From Candidatus Liptonbacteria bacterium (GTDB taxonomy: Bacteria; Patescibacteriota; Minisyncoccia; UBA6257; 2-01-FULL-56-20), in the NCBI GenBank assembly GCA_016204335.1, contig JACQKU010000021.1, positions 1 through 55,524 on the forward strand: a stretch of DNA of 55,524 nucleotides, in the 5' to 3' direction. Position numbers and translations under genes: made by a program. The first letter of the stretch is position 1, and each line of letters starts with the position of its first letter. Positions 7,117 to 47,638 of the stretch are shown here, piece by piece. Below the pieces are notes generated by a model that made no database searches, was not told the origin of the DNA, and saw only the letters and a program-made list of their open reading frames with translations.

Positions 7117-7593
7117 TTACTCTATTTTCACATTTAACTTCTTCGACTTTTTTCGGTTGAGTTTCGGAAGCCGGACGGTCAAAATGCCGTTTTTGAAATT
7201 AACAGTCGCGCGGTCCGGGTCGATTTCTTCCGGCAGAATAACCGAGCGTGAAAATCTGCCCCAGTAGCATTCCTGATAGAAATAATCCCCGTCTTTTATT
7301 TTTTCGTCCCTGCGGCGTTCGCCTTTGATGGTAATCGAGTCGGTTGAAACGTTCACATCCAAATCCTCGGGCTTGATGCCCGCGATTGCCGATTCAACGA
7401 CTATTTCCGAAGGCGTTTTATAGACATCTATAGTCAGCTTGCCCTCGGTTTCAATCTCGTCGTCAGCCCATTTTTTCGCGGGCGTTTTTTCTTCCGTCTC
7501 GGAAGAATCCTCGCCGGCATCGACTTTGTAGTGATGGTTATCGGGTCCGCCTTTCGCGAGCGATTCAAAAAATTTTTCTTCGGAAGTAGCCAT
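7117..7593 (-). CDS. Hsp20/alpha-crystallin small heat-shock protein
   Basis: An alpha-crystallin domain is evident: LTIDVYKTPSEIVVESAIAGIKPEDLDVNV...GRFSRSVILPEEIDPDRATVNFKNGILTVRLPK. Confidence 0.9.
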   Translation of the reverse strand: MATSEEKFFESLAKGGPDNHHYKVDAGEDSSETEEKTPAKKWADDEIETEGKLTIDVYKTPSEIVVESAIAGIKPEDLDVNVSTDSITIKGERRRDEKIKDGDYFYQECYWGRFSRSVILPEEIDPDRATVNFKNGILTVRLPKLNRKKSKKLNVKIE

Positions 7594-14053: not shown

Positions 14054-16300
<2,247 letters not shown>

Positions 16301-39173: not shown

Positions 39174-39845
39174 ATGGACACCACTGCGATTCTCGTATTC
39201 CAGCTAATCGTTCTGATTTTTTCCGTGATGATTCATGAGATTTCACACGGCTATATCGCCGAATATCTGGGAGACCCGACTGCGCGGCTCGCGGGGCGGC
39301 TGACGCTAAATCCCTTGAAGCACCTCGATTTTTTCGGCACGGTTATTTTGCCCGTTCTGACGTATTTTGCATGGGGGTTTCCGTTGGGTAGCGCCAAGCC
39401 GGTCCCGTATAACCCCAATAATCTTAAAAACCCCCTGCGCGGCGGGGCGTTTATAGCCGCCTCGGGCCCTTTAAGCAACATAGCAATCGCGGTTATTTTC
39501 GGAATTTTATTCAGAATTTTTCCTCCCATAGGCGACGGAATGCCGATACAGGTTCTTTTTACGCAAATTATTTTTATTAATCTTGTTCTGGCGATTTTCA
39601 ACCTTGTTCCAATACCGCCGCTCGACGGTTCGAAAGTTCTGAATTTTTTTCTGCCGGCAACATGGCAACTGCGTCTGGATAGTTTCTGGAATAATGCTTT
39701 TAACCTTATTCGGACTCAATGGCTCTTGTCCCTGATAATTTTCATTTTCTTTTTCCAATATGTGCTTACCGCCATTTTCTTTCTTATCGAGCCGGTTATC
39801 AAATTTTTATATTTCGTCGTGGCGGGGAATCCGGCGGGGTTTTAA
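39174..39845 (+). CDS. M50-family (site-2 protease-like) zinc metalloprotease
   Basis: MIHEISHGY (HExxH) in TM1, followed by NLVLAIFNLVPIPPLDGSK (NxxPxxxLDG). Confidence 0.85.
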   Translation: MDTTAILVFQLIVLIFSVMIHEISHGYIAEYLGDPTARLAGRLTLNPLKHLDFFGTVILPVLTYFAWGFPLGSAKPVPYNPNNLKNPLRGGAFIAASGPLSNIAIAVIFGILFRIFPPIGDGMPIQVLFTQIIFINLVLAIFNLVPIPPLDGSKVLNFFLPATWQLRLDSFWNNAFNLIRTQWLLSLIIFIFFFQYVLTAIFFLIEPVIKFLYFVVAGNPAGF

Positions 39846-39914
39846 GGGCATCCGAATAGCGCTCGCTCGCACTCCGCACTCGCGAAATCCGAATGCGCCC
39901 ATCCGAATTTTGAT

Positions 39915-39944
39915 TTGACATTATTGAGGTTTCCGTTTTACAAT
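39915..39944 (+). promoter_or_regulatory. Sigma70-like promoter TTGACA-N18-TACAAT upstream of rpsL
   Basis: ttgaca at 39915-20 and tacaat at 39939-44, about 90 nt upstream of the rpsL start. Confidence 0.45.
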
Positions 39945-40034
39945 CTCCCTTACTGCGAACTCCGCAGTTCATTTTATATTCCGTGTCTATAACCATAATA
40001 AACTAATCAGCTAATAAGCTAAAAAGCTAATCTA

Positions 40035-40445
40035 ATGCCCACCATCAGCCAGCTTATTAAACGAGGCAGGGATAAAACGAAGACGAAAACGAAATCGCCC
40101 GCGCTGTCTTTTTATTTCAATACGCTCAAAAACCGGCCCGTCGATTCTTCATCGCCGTTCAAACGCGGAGTATGCCTCAAGGTTTTTACCGTCACGCCTA
40201 AAAAGCCGAACTCGGCGCTTCGGAAGGTTTGCCGCGTGCGTCTGACGAACGGGATGGAAGTAAGCGCGTATATTCCGGGCGAAGGCCACACATTGCAGGA
40301 GCACTCGATTGTGATGTTGCGTGGAGGCCGCGTCAAAGACCTTCCGGGCATCAGGTATCACGTGGTCCGTGGAATTCTCGACACCACGGGTGTCGCGAAC
40401 AGGAAACAACAGAGGTCGAAATATGGAGCGAAACGTCCCAAGTGA
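40035..40445 (+). CDS. rpsL: 30S ribosomal protein S12
   Basis: [12 protein letters not shown]...[19 protein letters not shown]...[17 protein letters not shown]. Confidence 0.97.
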
Positions 40446-40541
40446 GATACCAATATACGAATGCATGCGAATGATACAAATAAATACTAATTCGTATTAT
40501 TTGTATCATTAGTACAATTGGTATATTTGTATCATAATTTT
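40446..40541. repeat. Intergenic hairpin built from atacgaat/gatacaaat words
   Basis: accaatatacgaatgcatgcgaatgatacaaataaatac pairs with gtattatttgtatcattagtacaattggtatatttg. Confidence 0.55.
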
Positions 40542-41009
40542 ATGAGAAAGAACCGCGTCTACAAAAAATATCATAAGGCAGACCCGCAATATAACAGGAT
40601 TGATTTGGGGAGGTTCATTAACTGCGTGATGAACGACGGAAAGAAATCAATTGCCCAACACATAGTGTATTCGGCATTTGAGAAAATAAAAAAAGAAACC
40701 AAACAGGAACCAGTTGAAGTGTTCGAAAAAGCCATAGCGAACGCTTCTCCGCTTCTCGAGGTTTCCTCGCGGCGTGTCGGCGGCGCGAATTATCAGGTGC
40801 CGCGGGAAGTCCGACCCGAGCGGAAATTCATCCTCGCAACCCGTTGGATTGTCCAGGTCGCGCGGAAAAAGAAAGGAAAGCCGTTTGCCGAGAAACTCGC
40901 GCAGGAGCTCATCGCCGCTTCAAAAAACGAAGGCGACGCCATCAAGAAAAAACAGGATATGCACAGAATGGCGGAAGCGAACCGGGCGTTCGCGCACTTT
41001 GCAAGGTGA
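40542..41009 (+). CDS. rpsG: 30S ribosomal protein S7
   Basis: DGKKSIAQHIVYSAFEKI...EVSSRRVGGANYQVP...MAEANRAFAHFA. Confidence 0.95.
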   Translation: MRKNRVYKKYHKADPQYNRIDLGRFINCVMNDGKKSIAQHIVYSAFEKIKKETKQEPVEVFEKAIANASPLLEVSSRRVGGANYQVPREVRPERKFILATRWIVQVARKKKGKPFAEKLAQELIAASKNEGDAIKKKQDMHRMAEANRAFAHFAR

Positions 41010-41028
41010 TTGAGTAATAAATTCACAC

Positions 41029-41328
41029 ATGGAAGACGCGGGACAGTTTTCTAAAGAGCCGCCGCCGGTTCCAAAAGATATCAGTAGGGAATTTTCTGAT
41101 ATGGACGTTTTTGGTTTTATAGAATTTTTGCACACACAAAGGAGAGAACCCGCGCTTTCCATAGAAGTTGATTGGAAGAATCCAGATAACGCAAAACGAC
41201 TTAAGGCGTTCTTGGAGTCCAAATCGACGGGCCAAAAAAGGTTTGCTGCAATACGCGCAACAAAAGAGCAGTACAACCAAGCGTTCAATGTATTTGCATC
41301 AGGAGTGAAGTGGATTGAGGTTAAGTAG
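41029..41328 (+). CDS. Hypothetical protein (99 aa) between rpsG and fusA
   Basis: Intact ORF, ATG 19 nt after the S7 stop. No family recognised. Confidence 0.5.
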
Positions 41329-41335
41329 AAATTTT

Positions 41336-41419
41336 ATGTCAAGACAATACCCAATCGAAAAAACCCGCAACACCCGCCTTCGCAAACGCTTCGGCGGGCA
41401 GGTCGACATCATCTTATAG
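41336..41419 (+). pseudogene. Duplicated fusA 5' end forming a 27-codon mini-ORF
   Basis: [12 protein letters not shown]..., compared with [15 protein letters not shown]. tagaaattttatg occurs at both 41326 and 41417. The copy then runs into a GC hairpin (cccgccttcgcaaacgcttcggcggg). Confidence 0.65.
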
Positions 41420-41426
41420 AAATTTT

Positions 41427-43562
41427 ATGCCTAGACAATATCCTATCGAGAAAACCAGAAACATAGGAATTATAGCCCACATTGATGCCGGAAAAACCAC
41501 GGTCAGCGAGCGCGTTCTTTTTTACACCGGCGTTTCGCACAAAATCGGAGAAGTTCACGAAGGCGATACGGTGATGGACTGGATGGAACAGGAACGCGAG
41601 CGTGGAATTACGATTACTTCCGCGGCAACGACCGCGTTTTGGACTCCCACTTACGTGGCGCGGACTCACGCGGACTTGAACGCAGACCAACGCAGAAAAG
41701 AGCATGAATATCGCATTAACCTTATCGATACGCCGGGACACATTGATTTTACCGTCGAGGTGAAGCGTTCGCTCCGCGTGCTCGACGGCGCGGTAGTCGT
41801 GTTTGACGGCGTGGCGGGCGTGGAGCCGCAATCCGAAACAAACTGGCATTACGCCGACGAATATCACGTGCCGCGCGTCTGTTTTATCAATAAGCTCGAC
41901 CGCATGGGCGCGAGTTTCGAGCGGAGCTTTGCTTCCATCAAAGAACGTCTGACCAAAAACGCGATGCCCGTTCAACTTCCCATCGGCATCGAGTCAACAT
42001 TCAGCGGATTGATTGACCTGCTCGAGATGAAGGCGTTCGAATTCCAGGGCGAGCACGGCGAACGGATTGTCGAAATTCCCATTCCGGAAAATATGAAATC
42101 CGAAGCCGAAATAGCCCGGCATAATTTGGTTGAAGCGATTGCCGACAGCGACGATTCGCTGATGACAAAATATCTTGCCGGAGAAGAAATAAAACTCGAT
42201 GAACTTAGGCGCGCGCTCCGGAAAGCGACCATCGAAAATAAAATCGTGCCGGTGTTTTGCGGTTCGGCTTTGAAAAACAAAGGCGTCCAGTTTGTTCTTG
42301 ACGCCGTGGTTGATTATTTGCCTTCGCCGCTCGATGTGCCGCCCGTAAAGGGAATAGACCCGAAAACAGGCGGAGAAATTATCCGCAAGCCGGATGACGG
42401 CGAGCCGTTCACCGCGCTCGCGTTTAAGATTGCGACCGACCCGTATGTCGGCACTCTTACTTATTTCCGGAATTACGGCGGCATTTTAAAACGCGGTTCG
42501 TATATTTTGAACGCGAGCAAAGGCGACCAGGAACGCATCGGCAGAATCGTCCGCATGCACGCGAATCAGCGGGAAGAAGTCGAGGAGGTGTACGCGGGCG
42601 AAATCGCGGCGATTGTAGGTTTGAAAAATACAACCACGGGCGACACGCTTTCGACGCCGGACACGCCTCTGATTCTTGAAAAAATAACTTTCCCCGAACC
42701 GGTCATCGGCATCCGCATCGAGCCGAAAACAAAAGCCGACCAGGAAAAAATGGGAACCGCGCTTCATCGTCTGGCTGAAGAGGACCCGACGTTCCGAGTC
42801 GCGGGCGACCCCGATACGGGAGAAACGATTATTTCGGGAATGGGAGAACTGCACCTTGAAATTATCGTGGACAGGATGAAACGGGAATTCAGCGTGGAAG
42901 CGAACGTGGGCAGGCCGCAGGTCGCGTACAAAGAAACGATTACTGCCGAAGCCGAAGCCGAAGGGAAATATATCAGGCAATCCGGCGGCCGCGGCCAGTA
43001 CGGCCATGTCTGGATGACGGTAAAGCCGCTTGAGCGCGGGAAAGGGTTTGAATTCGTGAGTAAAATCAGGGGAGGCGTCATTCCGAACGAGTTTATTCCT
43101 GCCGTCGAAAAAGGCGTCCGCGAGGCGAAAGACAAAGGCGTCGTCGCGCATTATCCCATGGTTGATATCGAGGCGACGCTCTATGACGGTTCGTTCCATG
43201 AAGTCGATTCTTCGGAAGCCGCGTTCAAAATCGCCGGCTCGATGGCGTTTCAGGAAGCGGCGCGGCGCGCGAAACCGGTCATTCTTGAGCCGATTATGAA
43301 AGTGCAGGTAATCGTGCCGCCTGATTTTTTGGGCGAAGTCACGGGCGATTTGAATTCGCGGCGCGGGAAAATCGAAACCATAGACGACCGGCTCAACATC
43401 AAAGTGATTGAGGTAAAAGTTCCGCTTTCCGAAATGTTCGGTTATGCGACAATAGTTCGTTCGCTCACGCAGGGCAGAGCGTCGTTCACGATGGAGTTTG
43501 ACAGATATGAGACGACGCCGAATAATGTAGCGCAGCTGATTATTGAAGGAAAGAAGAAATAG
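41427..43562 (+). CDS. fusA: Translation elongation factor G
   Basis: [22 protein letters not shown] and NKLDR G-motifs with full-length EF-G similarity. Contains a short repeat-like insert, [15 protein letters not shown]. Confidence 0.97.
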
Positions 43563-43634
43563 TTTTTGTTACACTTGCTTTTTATCTTTGTGTAAGGTAT
43601 TGTTTTTAGCAACTTGGTCGACAAGGAGGGCGTT

Positions 43635-43811
43635 ATGCTGATGTCGAATGGCAGTGAACGAGTTTTGGTTTGTTTCGGATTTGAGGAGTATGGGAGTCGC
43701 GAGGAGGCTCTCGAGAGGGCCAAGAGGATTAATCTCAGCGGGGATGACGAGAGAAGAATCTTCGTCGTCACCGAGGAGATTGCCTGGCCCCACTCCTCAC
43801 GCGCGGACTAG
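43635..43811 (+). CDS. Small G+C-rich hypothetical protein (58 aa) between fusA and tuf
   Basis: aaggagggcgttATG is a canonical SD. Followed by a 10-bp GC stem (ggggggcgcg...cgcgcccccc at 43843-74). Confidence 0.5.
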   Translation: MLMSNGSERVLVCFGFEEYGSREEALERAKRINLSGDDERRIFVVTEEIAWPHSSRAD

Positions 43812-43907
43812 AGGTTCGCGCCCAAGTTTTGAGTTAGGAGACGGGGGGCGCGCCGGGAACCGGTCGCGCCCCCCTCTCACAAATTCATCTCTGGGCAAGT
43901 CTGGGGA

Positions 43908-43935
43908 TTGACAATCAGAAACGTTCCGCTACAAT
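43908..43935 (+). promoter_or_regulatory. Sigma70-like promoter TTGACA-N16-TACAAT upstream of tuf
   Basis: ttgaca at 43908-13 and tacaat at 43930-35. Confidence 0.45.
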
Positions 43936-44067
43936 AAACAGCTGTTGATTATATTAACCAAAACAGGTCGAGAGTAATATCAGCTTTTAGGTATTAGCTG
44001 TTAGCTTATTAGGAAATAATCCGAATGGCGGCTAAAAGCTAAAACCTCAAAGCTAAAAGCTAAAAAT

Positions 44068-45267
44068 ATGGCAGAAAAAGAAAAGTTTTCGCGGGAGAAA
44101 CCGCACGTAAACGTCGGAACCATCGGACACGTTGACCACGGCAAGACAACTTTGACCGCGGCCATCACGCACGTCCTGTTTCTTAAGGGCTTGATAAAAA
44201 AAGAGGAAAGCGTTTCGCAGATTGACAACGCGCCCGAAGAAAAAGCGCGCGGGATTACCATCGCGCTCCATCATTCCGAATACGAGTCGGACAAACGGCA
44301 CTATGCCCACATTGACGCTCCGGGCCACGCCGACTACATAAAAAATATGATTACCGGCGCCGCCCAGATGGATGGAGCGGTTCTCGTTGTCGCCGCCACC
44401 GACGGTCCGATGCCTCAGACGCGGGAGCACATTCTTCTCGCGCGCCAGGTTGGCGTGCCGGCCGTCATCGTTTTTTTGAATAAAGTCGATATGGTGGATG
44501 ACCCCGAGCTTGTCGATTTGGTTGAATCGGAAGTCCGCGAGCTTCTCAAAAAATACGAATTCCCCGGCGACGAAGTCCCGATAATCCGGGGTTCCGCGCT
44601 CAAGGCGTTGAACGCGAAATCAGCCGACGACCCGGACGCTAAACCGATTCTCGATTTGGTGAAAGCGCTCGACGAATATATTCCCCAGCCGGTGCGCGAA
44701 CTCGACAAACCGTTCCTGATGCCCGTTGAAGACATTTTTTCGATTGAAGGGCGCGGCACCGTGGTGACGGGCAGAGTGGAGCGCGGCAAGGTGAAAGTGA
44801 ACGAGGAAATCGAAATTATCGGATTGCGCCCCACGCAGAAAACCGTGGTGACAGGAATCGAAATGTTCAACAAACTTTTGGACGAAGGCCTTGCTGGAGA
44901 CAACGTCGGCATTCTCCTTCGCGGTTCCAAGAAAGAGGATGTGGAGCGCGGCCAGGTTATCGCGAAACCCGGAAGCGTGACGCCCCACACCGAATTTGAA
45001 GCCGAAGTGTACGTGCTTTCAAAAGAAGAGGGCGGACGGCATACGCCGTTTTTCACCGGCTACAAACCCCAGTTTTACATCCGGACGACCGATGTGACCG
45101 GAGAAGCGACTCTACCCGCGGGCACGGAAATGGTTATGCCTGGAGACACGGTTAAAGTCAGCGTGAAACTCATTTCGCCGGTCGCGCTCGAGGAAAAACA
45201 AAGATTCGCTATTCGCGAGGGAGGGAAGACGGTTGGAGCGGGAGTGGTGACGAAAATACTGAAGTAA
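44068..45267 (+). CDS. tuf: Translation elongation factor Tu
   Basis: [32 protein letters not shown] and NKVDMV motifs. 399 aa. Confidence 0.98.
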
Positions 45268-45360
45268 ATCTCCAATCGACCGCGAATATAATCTCTAACA
45301 TTCTAGAATATCCCGGTTTAGAGATTATTCGAGATAAAATTGGAGATTGATTAGAGATAT
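45268..45360. repeat. Intergenic hairpin built from tctc(c/t)aat words
   Basis: atctccaatcgaccgcgaatataatctctaac pairs with gtttagagattattcgagataaaattggagat. Confidence 0.55.
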
Positions 45361-45696
45361 ATGGCTTCAAAGAAAAAAGAACAGTCGGCTTCGCAGAAAC
45401 TCCGTCTTCGGTTGAAGGGATACGACCACAAATTGATTGACAATTCGGCGCGCCAGATAATCGAGACCGCGGAGCGGAACGACGCCAAAATTATCGGTCC
45501 CATTCCTTTGCCCACGGAAATCAAGCGTTATACGGTCAACCGTTCGACATTCGTCCACAAGGACTCGCGCGAGCAGTTCGAGTTGCGGATTCACAAACGA
45601 CTGGTTGATATTATGAATCCGAACCAGAAAATCGTTGAATCGTTGAGAAATCTCAATCTGCCGGCTGGTGTCGATATAGAGATCAAAATGGTTTAA
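45361..45696 (+). CDS. rpsJ: 30S ribosomal protein S10
   Basis: [24 protein letters not shown]...GPIPLPT...[12 protein letters not shown]. Confidence 0.97.
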
Positions 45697-45719
45697 GCTA
45701 CCAGTGTATTCAAAACATT

Positions 45720-45980
45720 ATGGCAAAGAAAACCGTTACAAACGAAGAGCTTGCGGCAATGGTCCAGCGCGGTTTTGCCGAGACAGCAACAAAGAAAGAT
45801 GTCCAAGAGGTTGAAAAGCGGGTTAGTGAAACCGAAAAACGCCTCGTACGACATATTCAGGGGCTCGAGTTGAATATCTCGGCATATGCGTCGCGATGGA
45901 GCCAGGATTTCGAGCGCTTGCAGGACTGGATGAAAGAGCTTGATGCGCGGGTGAGTGTGATTGAGGGCAAAAAGAGATAA
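45720..45980 (+). CDS. Hypothetical coiled-coil protein (86 aa) between rpsJ and rplC
   Basis: Heptad-like charged sequence (KKDVQEVEKRVSETEKRLVRHIQ...LQDWMKELDARVSVIEGKK). No family recognised. Confidence 0.5.
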   Translation: MAKKTVTNEELAAMVQRGFAETATKKDVQEVEKRVSETEKRLVRHIQGLELNISAYASRWSQDFERLQDWMKELDARVSVIEGKKR

Positions 45981-45999
45981 CAACTTCGTAATTAATATC

Positions 46000-46782
46000 A
46001 TGAAAGAAAGTTATTTCAACCCTGGTCAGCCCGAGTACAAAGAGCTTGCCGATCTTCCAGAAGATCAGAGGGCAAATTACGTTGAAGTGGAAGGAGGGGG
46101 ACTTATAAAGAAAGGATTTGTAGAGAAATCAGCTGCAGATAACGATAAAAAGACGGCAATCGCGGCTCGTTTCGCGAAGAACTCTGAAGAATATATTCTC
46201 CGTGGAGAAGCCGATAAATTCGATAAAGTTCGCGACAGAGCTTTAAAAGAATTAGATTATGCCCTGACATCGGAAAAAATTAAAAGCCCTTTCACACAAG
46301 TTCGCAATGATGTAGCGTTGCCTGCACGGAATGCAGTTGAGTTCTCTCCATATCGCAAAGAACTTTTTGATAGCGAGGAAGTAGTACGTAAGTATGCGGG
46401 CGTAATAGGAGCACATTTAGTTTTTGGTGAAATGTCCGAACGGCTTAAAAATAACAAACAATTCGTTTTAGAGCTTCTAAATACGACTGGGGAAGGATTC
46501 AAATATGTTGGAGGAGGAATTTCTGAGTTGCCGGGAAATATGTCTTCAGATAAAGATATTATCATGGCCGCTATGAGGACAGATCCTATTGCCGCCTTTA
46601 GTCATGCTTCAGAAACAGAGCGTAATGATCTTGATTTCATCGCGACCACGCTTGATGTTATTGACGAACAAAAATATTCACCACATACGGGTTTTAATGC
46701 ATTGAATGAGATATTACGGATGGCAGATCCAGCACTCGCGAAAGATATATTGGAAAAGCGGGAGTTGGGAAACCAAAAGTGA
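46000..46782 (+). CDS. Hypothetical protein (260 aa), possibly with DUF4116-like repeats
   Basis: NKQFVLELLNTTGEGFKYV and DKDIIMAAMRTDPIAAFSHAS resemble the DUF4116 repeat pattern. This assignment is tentative. Confidence 0.5.
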   Translation: MKESYFNPGQPEYKELADLPEDQRANYVEVEGGGLIKKGFVEKSAADNDKKTAIAARFAKNSEEYILRGEADKFDKVRDRALKELDYALTSEKIKSPFTQVRNDVALPARNAVEFSPYRKELFDSEEVVRKYAGVIGAHLVFGEMSERLKNNKQFVLELLNTTGEGFKYVGGGISELPGNMSSDKDIIMAAMRTDPIAAFSHASETERNDLDFIATTLDVIDEQKYSPHTGFNALNEILRMADPALAKDILEKRELGNQK

Positions 46783-47029
46783 AAGTTGACATTTCTCGTG
46801 TCTTGCTCTACCATACCTCTATCTCTTTAATGGACGCCCGAAACATCATTAGTTGAGAGCGTTTCACAAGGATAGCCGATCGCCATGGCTGTGCCTTGGC
46901 GGTTTTTTTAGCGCCTGCGGCAATATGATGCCAATTATGCGAATTCAATGCCAATCTACCAATCGCAAATAAGATTTATTCGCAATTCGAAATATTGGCA
47001 TAAGATTCGTAGATTTGCATCGCAATAAA

Positions 47030-47638
47030 ATGAGTTTCATTTTAGGCAAAAAACTGAATATGACCCAGATTTGGAAAGGCGATGCCGTTGTTCCGGTTAC
47101 GCTTATTCAGGCGTTGCCGAATAAGGTCTCGCTCATCAAGAACAAAGAGAGAGACGGCTACGAAGCCGTGCAAGTAGCGCTTGGGAAAAAGAAGCGAGAA
47201 TTTCGCGACAAGCAACCCTCCTTCGCTAAAGCTATGGAGGGCGAGCAAGCGACAAACGACAAGGTTCAATACAAAGCAGGAGACATGATTGACGTTTCGG
47301 TTTTCAGCGAAGGGGATTTGGTGAAAATAAGCGGTTTATCCAAAGGCAGAGGATTTCAGGGAGTGGTAAAGCGGCACGGGTTCGCGGGAGGGCCTAAAAC
47401 ACACGGACAGAAAAACCGGTTGCGCGCGCCCGGCTCCATCGGTTCCACTGCGCCTCAAAGGGTGTATCCCGGACGGCGGATGGCTGGCAGAATGGGCAAC
47501 GAGCGCGTAAGTATAAAAAATCTCCTGATCGCGGGCGTCGATAAAGAAAAAAATATGCTGATGGTAAGAGGCGCGGTTCCCGGGGCGAGGGGAGGACTGT
47601 TGGAAATATCAAAAATCAAATCTCAAAATGCAAAATGA
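47030..47638 (+). CDS. rplC: 50S ribosomal protein L3
   Basis: [10 protein letters not shown]...VTLIQ...[22 protein letters not shown]...[10 protein letters not shown]. Contains the insert [17 protein letters not shown]. Confidence 0.95.
   Translation: [202 protein letters not shown]

Follow-up and report, generated by a model that had tools for sequence, protein, structure and literature searches.

Genes and features of the locus

The window analyzed here is the whole stretch of 55,524 nucleotides (nt) of contig JACQKU010000021.1 (assembly GCA_016204335.1) from a Candidatus Liptonbacteria bacterium, and the subject is its string of translation genes from rpsL to rplC, which carries four additional open reading frames (ORFs) at three of its junctions. 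On the plus strand the gene order is rpsL, rpsG, ORF99, fusA, ORF58, tuf, rpsJ, ORF86, a gene encoding a DUF4116-domain protein of 260 amino acids (aa), and rplC. Of these, rpsL is located at 40035-40445, rpsG ends with its stop codon at 41009, and tuf (44068-45267) and rpsJ (45361-45696) follow further downstream. For fusA, encoding EF-G, the positions are 41427-43562 with a working start within the second copy of a direct repeat described below, and rplC, the first gene of the putative third unit, occupies 47030-47638; a start of rplC at the TTG at 47015 was considered and ATG 47030 is most likely instead.

The genome is a metagenome-assembled draft of 0.70 Mb in 23 contigs with a completeness of 93%, and the DNA of the window is present in groundwater metagenomes as judged by metagenome sequence matches. 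Each of the three junctions is crossed with 0 mismatches by Logan contigs assembled from three further samples of this study. Because these independent contigs bridge all junctions without mismatch, misassembly is excluded as far as junction-spanning contigs allow. In the Logan run X5 the bins 41028-41284 and 45911-46167 are uncovered, and this run is uninformative on an absence of ORF99 or ORF86. The junction gaps contain neither tRNA genes nor Rfam genes, and an Rfam search of 39800-47100 returned nothing, even at an E-value of 1.

A preceding sequence-only reading of this DNA had listed a 99-aa ORF between rpsG and fusA at 41029-41328, a G+C-rich 58-aa ORF with a canonical Shine-Dalgarno (SD) sequence and a GC stem between fusA and tuf, and an 86-aa protein together with a possibly DUF4116-like 260-aa protein between rpsJ and rplC. 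All of these were recovered: the coordinates of ORF99 are right, ORF58 has the SD sequence AAGGAGG, a G+C content at third codon positions (GC3) of 0.68 and a stem of -52.6 kcal/mol, and the 260-aa protein passes the DUF4116 threshold. That reading had seen no recognisable translation-related function in any of the four, and in agreement with this, scans against Pfam, PHROGs, PADLOC and NCBIfam gave no translation-related annotation for any of them; in PHROGs, PADLOC and NCBIfam there was no credible match at all. It had also raised the question of a coding signal. Judged by comparison, all four ORFs are real coding genes, since each has homologues with conserved residues; for the DUF4116 gene, a related strain from another study differs at 12 positions, 6 synonymous and 6 non-synonymous, which is a weak signal consistent with constraint. 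The homologues of the small genes are Patescibacteria (candidate phyla radiation) records.

The base composition of three of the four inserted genes is atypical for the genome. With a gene mean of 0.54, the GC3 is 0.44 for ORF99 (11th percentile) and 0.34 for the DUF4116 gene (3rd percentile), making both A+T-rich for this genome, and the value of ORF58 corresponds to the 98th percentile, i.e., this gene is G+C-rich. The atypical composition in three of the four genes suggests a horizontal origin of the inserts, and its opposite directions would argue for separate acquisitions rather than a single mechanism or source.

Variability of the junctions in related genomes

For comparison, 40 related genomes were used, 24 from the same family and 16 from other families of the order. 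The gaps between neighboring genes were determined at 37 loci of these relatives, and a gap of at least 350 nt was counted as widened. The fusA-tuf gap is widened in 9 of 23 cases, with gaps of up to 4.0 kb, and at seven further loci there is no fusA within 3-5.3 kb upstream of tuf. Similarly, the rpsJ-rplC gap is widened in 11 of 29 cases, with gaps of up to 1.9 kb, with five further loci lacking rplC within 3.5 kb. Thus, these two boundaries are widened in about 40% of the relatives, by genes unrelated to each other. The remaining junctions were found widened once, namely rpsG-fusA (1/20, only in the genome G001 of the same genus) and tuf-rpsJ (1/36, only in the genome G010; the gap is <300 nt in 35/36), or never, as for rpsL-rpsG (0/20), rplC-rplD (0/28) and rplD-rplW (0/28).

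The inserts of the relatives vary considerably in their size, the number of their genes and the strand. Those typed by Pfam comprise a DinB polymerase with a YggU-like gene, an ABC1 kinase, a TylF-type methyltransferase, a trypsin-like peptidase, an RsmC-like methyltransferase (MTS) with an AdoMetDC-like gene, TSCPD and DUF3830, and many further ORFs have no Pfam match. A single family, a TPR-like protein, is common to two genomes at one junction; all other inserts are unrelated. The four genes of the window were found at these junctions in none of the 40 relatives, the same genus included. Having their homologues in unrelated neighborhoods, all four are, as far as gene contexts tell, "nomadic" single genes.

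In G010 the whole cluster is highly fragmented (L099 1480-3178; L039): rpsG is followed by an unrelated ORF of 141 aa, tuf and rpsJ are 2.4 kb apart with ORFs of 419 and 162 aa in between, and there is no rplC within 3.5 kb of rpsJ.

Features of a mobile element were searched for as well. The contig carries no integrase gene, and the whole assembly has one Xer-like gene of the Phage_integrase family, located on contig C6. No repeats resembling attachment (att) sites or target site duplications (TSDs) were found flanking ORF58 or the pair of ORF86 and the DUF4116 gene, and no direct or inverted repeats common to the inserts, as would be typical for integron or other site-specific cassettes, were detected.

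Predicted transcription units

The 250 nt upstream of each gene were scanned at all loci for TTGACA-N16-18-TAnnnT with a score of at least 10/12. Promoter-like sites were detected ahead of rpsL (18 of 21 genomes), tuf (30 of 34) and rplC (16 of 26). None was found upstream of rpsG (0/20), fusA (0/21), rpsJ (0/37), rplD (0/29) and rplW (0/29). The tuf sites lie without exception at a distance of 65-207 nt from the start and, where an insert is present, downstream of it, and the sites of tuf and rplC scoring at least 10/12 lie 65-245 nt from the gene, being gene-proximal in the listed genomes with kilobase inserts too. In a scan for a hairpin with a T-run within 120 nt past the stop codon, a terminator-like hairpin was found after rpsJ in 25 of 38 genomes; the numbers for the other genes are 0/19 for rpsL, 0/21 for rpsG, 2/24 for fusA, 0/37 for tuf, 1/29 for rplC and 4/29 for rplD. 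Because promoter-like sites occur solely before rpsL, tuf and rplC and a hairpin follows rpsJ, the string would probably be composed of three units in the order rpsL-rpsG-fusA, tuf-rpsJ and rplC onwards.

The window agrees with this scheme. Consensus matches on the plus strand precede the rpsL-rpsG-(ORF99)-fusA unit (TTGACA-18-TACAAT, 39915-39944), tuf (TTGACA-16-TACAAT, 43908-43935, followed by a structured leader of ~130 nt) and rplC (TTGACA-17-TACCAT, 46786-46814). ORF58 is located between the fusA stop codon and the promoter-like site of tuf, and the region from the rpsJ stop codon to the promoter-like site of rplC holds ORF86 and the DUF4116 gene. In compact relatives (L041, L034, L044) the -35 hexamer of rplC is found inside the last rpsJ codons (GTT GAC ATA, encoding V-D-I), and the -10 element covers or follows the rpsJ stop codon.

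Leaders of tuf and rplC

The promoter-like site of rplC and a conserved structured leader together occupy 46786-46922 on the plus strand, with the leader at 46812-46922 and its terminal hairpin and U-run at ~46879-46912. The leader consists of a two-helix domain around CUUUAAUGGAC...GUUU(U)CACAAGGA, behind which a GC hairpin and the U-run are located. A consensus fold with 10 compensatory pairs is shared by six genera, and a covariance model adds four genera, 10 genera of the family in total, with the element always just 5' of rplC. In the alignment, 92% of the cells are paired compared to 42-52% if the partners are slid by 1-3 columns, the alignment being fitted to the model and thereby favoring structure, and double (compensatory) changes occur in 15 of 26 pairs. 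There is no Rfam match. A conserved covarying structure ending in a terminator and placed 5' of a ribosomal protein operon is what is found in ribosomal protein leaders and attenuators, and for the L3-L4 operon the element represents a candidate attenuator.

The tuf leader (43940-44068) is predicted to form a long hairpin (z -4.4) out of AGCTAAAAGCT-type words, extending as far as the start codon of tuf. Words like these are also found ahead of rpsL (40016-40035).

The inserted genes

ORF99 (41029-41328, plus strand) belongs to a conserved alpha/beta family of ~100 aa from Patescibacteria with at least 22 homologues and 16 invariant residues; among the four families it is the only one with wide conservation. 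It starts 19 nt past the rpsG stop codon on the same strand, without a terminator-like site in between, and its TAG stop codon is placed 7 nt ahead of a 27-codon ORF that copies the fusA start. Because its unit has no internal promoter-like site and the packing is operon-style, ORF99 is the sole true intra-operon insert of the four, embedded in the rpsL unit. Its AlphaFold2 model (pLDDT 84.7) suggests a generic alpha/beta sandwich: Foldseek gave no match at an E-value of 0.001 or better, VIA-align gave merely generic Rossmann- or CheY-like matches with Z <= 6.2, and an Atlas search gave no usable match. Among the 40 relatives the family occurs once, in G035, after ftsH and tRNA-Ile and far from the str genes. 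In the genomes of 22 species the neighbors of the homologues differ each time and include, from translations read by eye, atp genes, aminoacyl-tRNA synthetases, tRNAs, fmt, folD and others, so there is no fixed neighborhood. An enrichment of translation genes beside the homologues was considered and is not clearly above expectation. Likewise, a 12-nt similarity between the ends of rpsG and ORF99 (10/12) is at an estimated chance level and lies within residues native to the ORF99 family.

ORF58 (43635-43811, plus strand; 43623-43811 with the SD sequence) represents a rare family of ~55-60 aa. Its SD sequence at 43623-43629 is 5 nt ahead of the ATG. A promoter-like site within the 3' end of fusA (TTGACA-17-AATAAT, 43498-43526, plus strand) is placed to drive ORF58, and a consensus match of this kind may be active. 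Behind the gene follows a 14-bp G+C stem without U-run (43843-43874, plus strand; z -5.25). Alone of the four, ORF58 thus looks self-contained, with promoter-like site, SD sequence and hairpin. Three homologous proteins of 53-62 aa with 43-47% identity share a common pattern. The copy in G304, the only one found among 300 genomes of the class, is flanked by genes for a PD-(D/E)XK-type nuclease (by translation reading) and a Xer-like recombinase (L094 1420-1720), and it also has a promoter-like site, AAGGAGG and a terminator. Since the copy from the A+T-rich genome G304 has AAGGAGG as well, the strong SD sequence appears to be a family trait and the G+C richness does not. In a ~92%-identical strain from another study the adjacency of fusA and ORF58 is kept. 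The AlphaFold2 model of ORF58 is unusable (pLDDT 47), and a sequence search of the PDB gave no match.

ORF86 (45720-45980, plus strand) encodes a small helical protein from a family-restricted group and begins 23 nt past the rpsJ stop codon on the same strand, without a terminator-like site in between. Full-length relatives have 92% and 71% identity, one of them with an in-frame insertion of three residues, and distant relatives are found in two other genera: G002 has two copies beside a transketolase gene, and in G010 the gene lies just upstream of rpsL (63 nt). The DUF4116-domain protein (46000-46782, plus strand) matches Pfam PF13475 with 37.1 bits (cut-off 24.9; E-value 2.3e-9) in two repeat stretches, and its nearest Atlas clusters are all DUF4116. 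Two full-length relatives show 56% and 46% identity, the closer one being encoded between gyrB and secE-nusG-rplK; in the 40 related genomes the protein was not found. Both genes are appended to the 3' end of the tuf-rpsJ unit. Because there is no terminator-like site from rpsJ to the rplC leader, read-through transcription from tuf-rpsJ probably covers both of them as far as the hairpin of that leader.

The duplicated fusA start and the GC palindrome

At the junction of ORF99 and fusA a direct repeat of 47 nt was found, with copies at 41326-41372 and 41417-41463 that are 85% identical and spaced by 91 nt. The first triplet of the repeat is the ORF99 stop codon. The upstream copy, on the plus strand, consists of TAG-N7-ATG plus 12 fusA codons and opens a 27-codon ORF (41336-41419), which stops at a TAG 7 nt before the genuine fusA ATG. 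Both copies are separated by 44 nt, the beginning of which is occupied by a 30-nt GC palindrome (41373-41402, plus strand). The 47-nt repeat has no other occurrence in the assembly. Of the palindrome, ~15 copies are dispersed over 9 contigs, and apart from this element the three gap sequences have no further genomic copy. Because the 47-nt repeat includes the ORF99 stop codon, ORF99 would predate the insertion of the palindrome and would at that time have been located 7 nt before fusA.

The same design occurs twice more in this genome, in a gene for a typA-like GTPase and in one for a CobO-like P-loop protein, both typed by their N-terminal motif only. In the typA-like gene (contig C1, ~7200-7330, minus strand), MEIRNIAIIAHVD is followed by the palindrome and by HGKNL with a stop codon, and then by the genuine start MNIRNIAIIAHVDHGK. 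In the CobO-like gene (contig C17, ~15363-15440, plus strand), MIIVFTGNG runs into the palindrome and MIIVFTGNGKGKT follows. In both cases the stop codon of the mini-ORF overlaps the genuine ATG (ATGA), and the palindrome is in-frame just ahead of the P-loop GK(S/T) codons. Short palindromes dispersed in many copies, some of them within reading frames, are the hallmark of repetitive extragenic palindromic (REP) and Rickettsia palindromic element (RPE)-like sequences, and this is what the 30-nt palindrome displays. A further copy at contig C1 59883-59912 is apparently in-frame (+10 codons) in a pseudouridine-synthase-like ORF, in a comparison made without alignment, and thereby resembles the Rickettsia palindromic elements.

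A related situation was found in G001 (L044 2155-2852), where a DUF3830 gene occupies the rpsG-fusA junction and is followed by a pseudo-fusA start of its own that runs into GC-rich sequence. This pseudo-start lies ~220 nt before the genuine start, and it is closer to the fusA start of the window's genome than the genuine start of G001 is. G001 is the closest genome compared for an empty site; it carries its own pseudo-start, and its intergenic DNA does not align with that of the window's genome, and the comparison gives no exact insert borders. When the upstream side of seven marker genes was scanned for duplicated starts at the 37 relative loci, none was found at >=27/39 identity; the diverged pseudo-start of G001 is seen solely through its ORF.

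With 47 nt of otherwise unique target surrounding 44 nt, the arrangement has a direct repeat of >30 bp flanking an insert, and the duplication with the palindrome would be, in its form, an insertion scar of the "long target duplication" type. It can be speculated, though with considerable doubt, that the palindrome represents a micro-element family that enters the first codons of essential P-loop NTPase genes, each entry being accompanied by a start duplication of 40-55 nt. The gene would then be rebuilt behind the insert and the old start would become a coupled mini-ORF. This idea is based on the copies in fusA, the typA-like and the CobO-like gene and on another element in fusA of the sister species. 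If insertion and duplication occurred in one step, this would be an undescribed self-repairing route for selfish DNA into operons and, together with an anchoring on conserved genes, it would provide a physical basis for "landing pads". The duplicated fusA start itself adds to a recurring class of hairpin insertions with duplication of gene starts, which has been poorly described.

Probable gene turnover at tolerant spacers and alternative explanations

The data are probably best explained by a fast turnover of genes at tolerant spacers between units, and not by a special landing-pad device. In this model, three co-directional transcription units follow each other in this order of ultra-small bacteria, with the rplC unit behind its own promoter and an attenuator-type leader. 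A gene landing between the end of one unit and the next promoter would leave the essential gene joined to its promoter, which would be a sufficient reason for insertions being tolerated there. Such spacers would gain and lose accessory genes quickly, and this would be the reason why different genomes hold unrelated genes at these positions. ORF58 would be a self-contained unit parked between fusA and the tuf promoter. ORF99 would be the exception, having been inserted inside the first unit at a distance of 19 nt from rpsG and, originally, 7 nt from fusA; the GC palindrome would have entered the ORF99/fusA junction later, with the 47-nt target duplication, turning the old fusA start into the 27-codon upstream ORF.

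Several points weigh against turnover at unit boundaries. The promoters and terminators are consensus matches only, from which transcription is deduced. The fusA/tuf junction is a boundary merely by virtue of the second promoter, given that a terminator-like site follows fusA in 2 of 24 genomes, and promoter-like sites of rplC are present in just 16 of 26 genomes. ORF99 and the DUF3830 gene of G001 show that a junction without a downstream promoter also takes inserts. Moreover, the relatives are no independent samples, and the fractions overstate the number of events; the direction of gain versus loss follows from the non-homology of the inserts and not from a rooted reconstruction.

The idea of the sequence-only reading that operon junctions act as landing pads for small cassettes stands as far as recurrent sites of gene gain are concerned (9/23 and 11/29 widened), and nothing was found to indicate a cassette-capture device. 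Of the interruptions of the gene order that it had listed, that by ORF99 at rpsG-fusA lies inside an operon, and fusA/tuf and rpsJ/rplC would instead be boundaries between promoter-defined units. It had named a conservation of the ORFs at the same junctions across the lineage as a possible objection; they were found there in none of the 40 relatives. The CYTH gene it had reported inside the atp operon is indeed located between atpG and atpD (15701-16300, minus strand), with gaps of 7 nt and 4 nt, and is a true intra-operon insert.

Alternatively, the conserved genes themselves might serve as entry points: foreign DNA taken up by the cells would recombine at one end with the near-identical sequence of fusA, tuf or rpsJ, and the joint at its other end would be illegitimate, by homology-facilitated illegitimate recombination or insertion with long target duplication. 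Genes beside the conserved gene of the donor would be carried in, and the duplicated fusA starts would be the scars of such events. The 47-nt duplicated fusA start around a 44-nt insert, the different gene with its own pseudo-fusA start at the same junction in G001, the ~46-bp duplications described around inserts in mostly naturally competent species (Furuta et al., 2010; PMC2853133) and the location of the hot junctions beside the string's three most conserved genes are in line with this. However, there are no duplicated gene ends at fusA/tuf or rpsJ/rplC of the window and none of the seven markers has a duplicated start at the 37 relative loci (>=27/39), the duplication encloses only the 44 nt with the palindromic repeat and not ORF99, and tuf-rpsJ, a junction between two highly conserved genes, is almost never widened. 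As the promoter map already accounts for the hot junctions, the entry-point mechanism is considered unlikely. Even less probable is that the ORFs encode lineage-specific translation partners, associated with the ribosome or an elongation factor and placed there for co-expression. The operon-style position of ORF99 between rpsG and fusA would agree with such a role, as would the frequent location of genes of its family near tRNAs, lysS/serS, infB, fmt and prfA (translations read by eye), the relative of ORF86 just upstream of rpsL in G010 and the DUF4116 homologue just upstream of secE-nusG-rplK. Yet none of the genes is kept at the junctions in the relatives, including the same genus, ~10 of 22 ORF99 contexts, again read by eye, touch a translation gene where chance would give about one third in such gene-poor genomes (a rough estimate, not a computed value), and no family, fold or defence-library match supports the role.

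A dedicated site-specific capture system acting at operon junctions, either integron-like or integrase-driven, was suggested by the appearance of ORF58 as a compact promoter-gene-hairpin unit and by the tyrosine recombinase gene next to its homologue in G304. With a single Phage_integrase-family gene on another contig, no repeated sequence resembling a recombination site around the inserts, gap sequences that, the 30-nt palindrome excepted, lack another genomic copy, and inserts in relatives that vary in size, gene number and strand, such a system is very improbable. The least credible explanation is an artefact, i.e., a chimeric assembly or spurious ORFs in spacers. The genome is a metagenome-assembled draft in 23 contigs and ORF58 and ORF86 are short, but the contigs from three other samples cross the junctions with 0 mismatches, homologues of all four genes have conserved residues and length differences that are in-frame, and the DUF4116 gene shows the 12 differences (6 synonymous and 6 non-synonymous) in the related strain.

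The string from rpsL to rplC serves as a fixed marker block in binning and phylogeny and is assumed to form one or two operons. In this order of the candidate phyla radiation it would comprise three promoter-defined units with two slots of fast turnover. A position in the "ribosomal operon" is thus not evidence of a function in translation, and an annotation of such orphans by guilt-by-association would mislead. Furthermore, the unit boundaries appear to carry regulatory RNAs outside Rfam, namely the attenuator-type leader of rplC and the structured leader of tuf. The slots offer a convenient view of how genes are gained and lost in genomes with otherwise almost no spare DNA.

Comparison with known systems

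The leader of the S10 operon in E. coli is an L4-dependent attenuator. The element at 46786-46922 resembles it in combining a promoter, a structured leader and an intrinsic terminator ahead of the genes for L3, L4 and L23. In contrast to E. coli, it is placed before rplC and not before rpsJ, and it has no similarity in sequence or by Rfam. Phage "morons" are autonomous units of promoter, gene and terminator, and ORF58 is similar to them in having a promoter-like site, a strong SD sequence and a trailing hairpin between two unrelated genes; unlike morons, it is without phage context, PHROG match or evidence of mobility.

For the scar at fusA, the closest counterpart are direct repeats of ~46 bp from unique targets, which flank inserts without transposase or integrase in mostly naturally competent species (Furuta et al., 2010; PMC2853133). 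Those inserts are kilobase restriction-modification genes, whereas here 44 nt with a dispersed 30-nt palindrome are enclosed. Moreover, the duplicated target contains a start codon in this case, and it is because of this that fusA survives the insertion.

In Archaea, uS10 is always apart from uL3-uL4-uL23 (PMC10833476). The S10/L3 junction would therefore be a natural breakpoint in both, with the difference that rpsJ and rplC mostly remain neighbors here, with a promoter-attenuator module between them. For Gammaproteobacteria and Bacilli, it was described in 2019 that unrelated small gene sets are found at operon joints of the same cluster, such as bfd-bfr or ilv-leu between str and S10, and that further separation often follows (PMC6735719). 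The joint in those groups is tuf/rpsJ; here tuf-rpsJ is tight and the joints are fusA/tuf and rpsJ/rplC.

The most general parallel is the insertion of narrowly distributed new genes into native operons, often downstream and borrowing the native promoter (Price, Arkin and Alm, 2006, "The Life-Cycle of Operons"; PMC1480536), with sdhCDAB-b0725-sucABCD as an example in which an orphan separates two old operons. Such native-ORFan insertions would be represented here by ORF86 and the DUF4116 gene after tuf-rpsJ and by ORF99 inside rpsL-fusA. All four genes of the window have a narrow or patchy distribution and are absent at this position in relatives, and the spacing of ORF99 (19 nt) and ORF86 (23 nt), co-oriented with the native gene and without a terminator-like site in between, would be compatible with co-transcription. 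The earlier work covers the operons of E. coli and B. subtilis in general; here the core translation cluster of a 0.7-Mb genome is concerned, and the slots are reused across an order. As a summary, the overall pattern is already known (Price et al., 2006; PMC1480536), and the difference lies in the positions of the joints.

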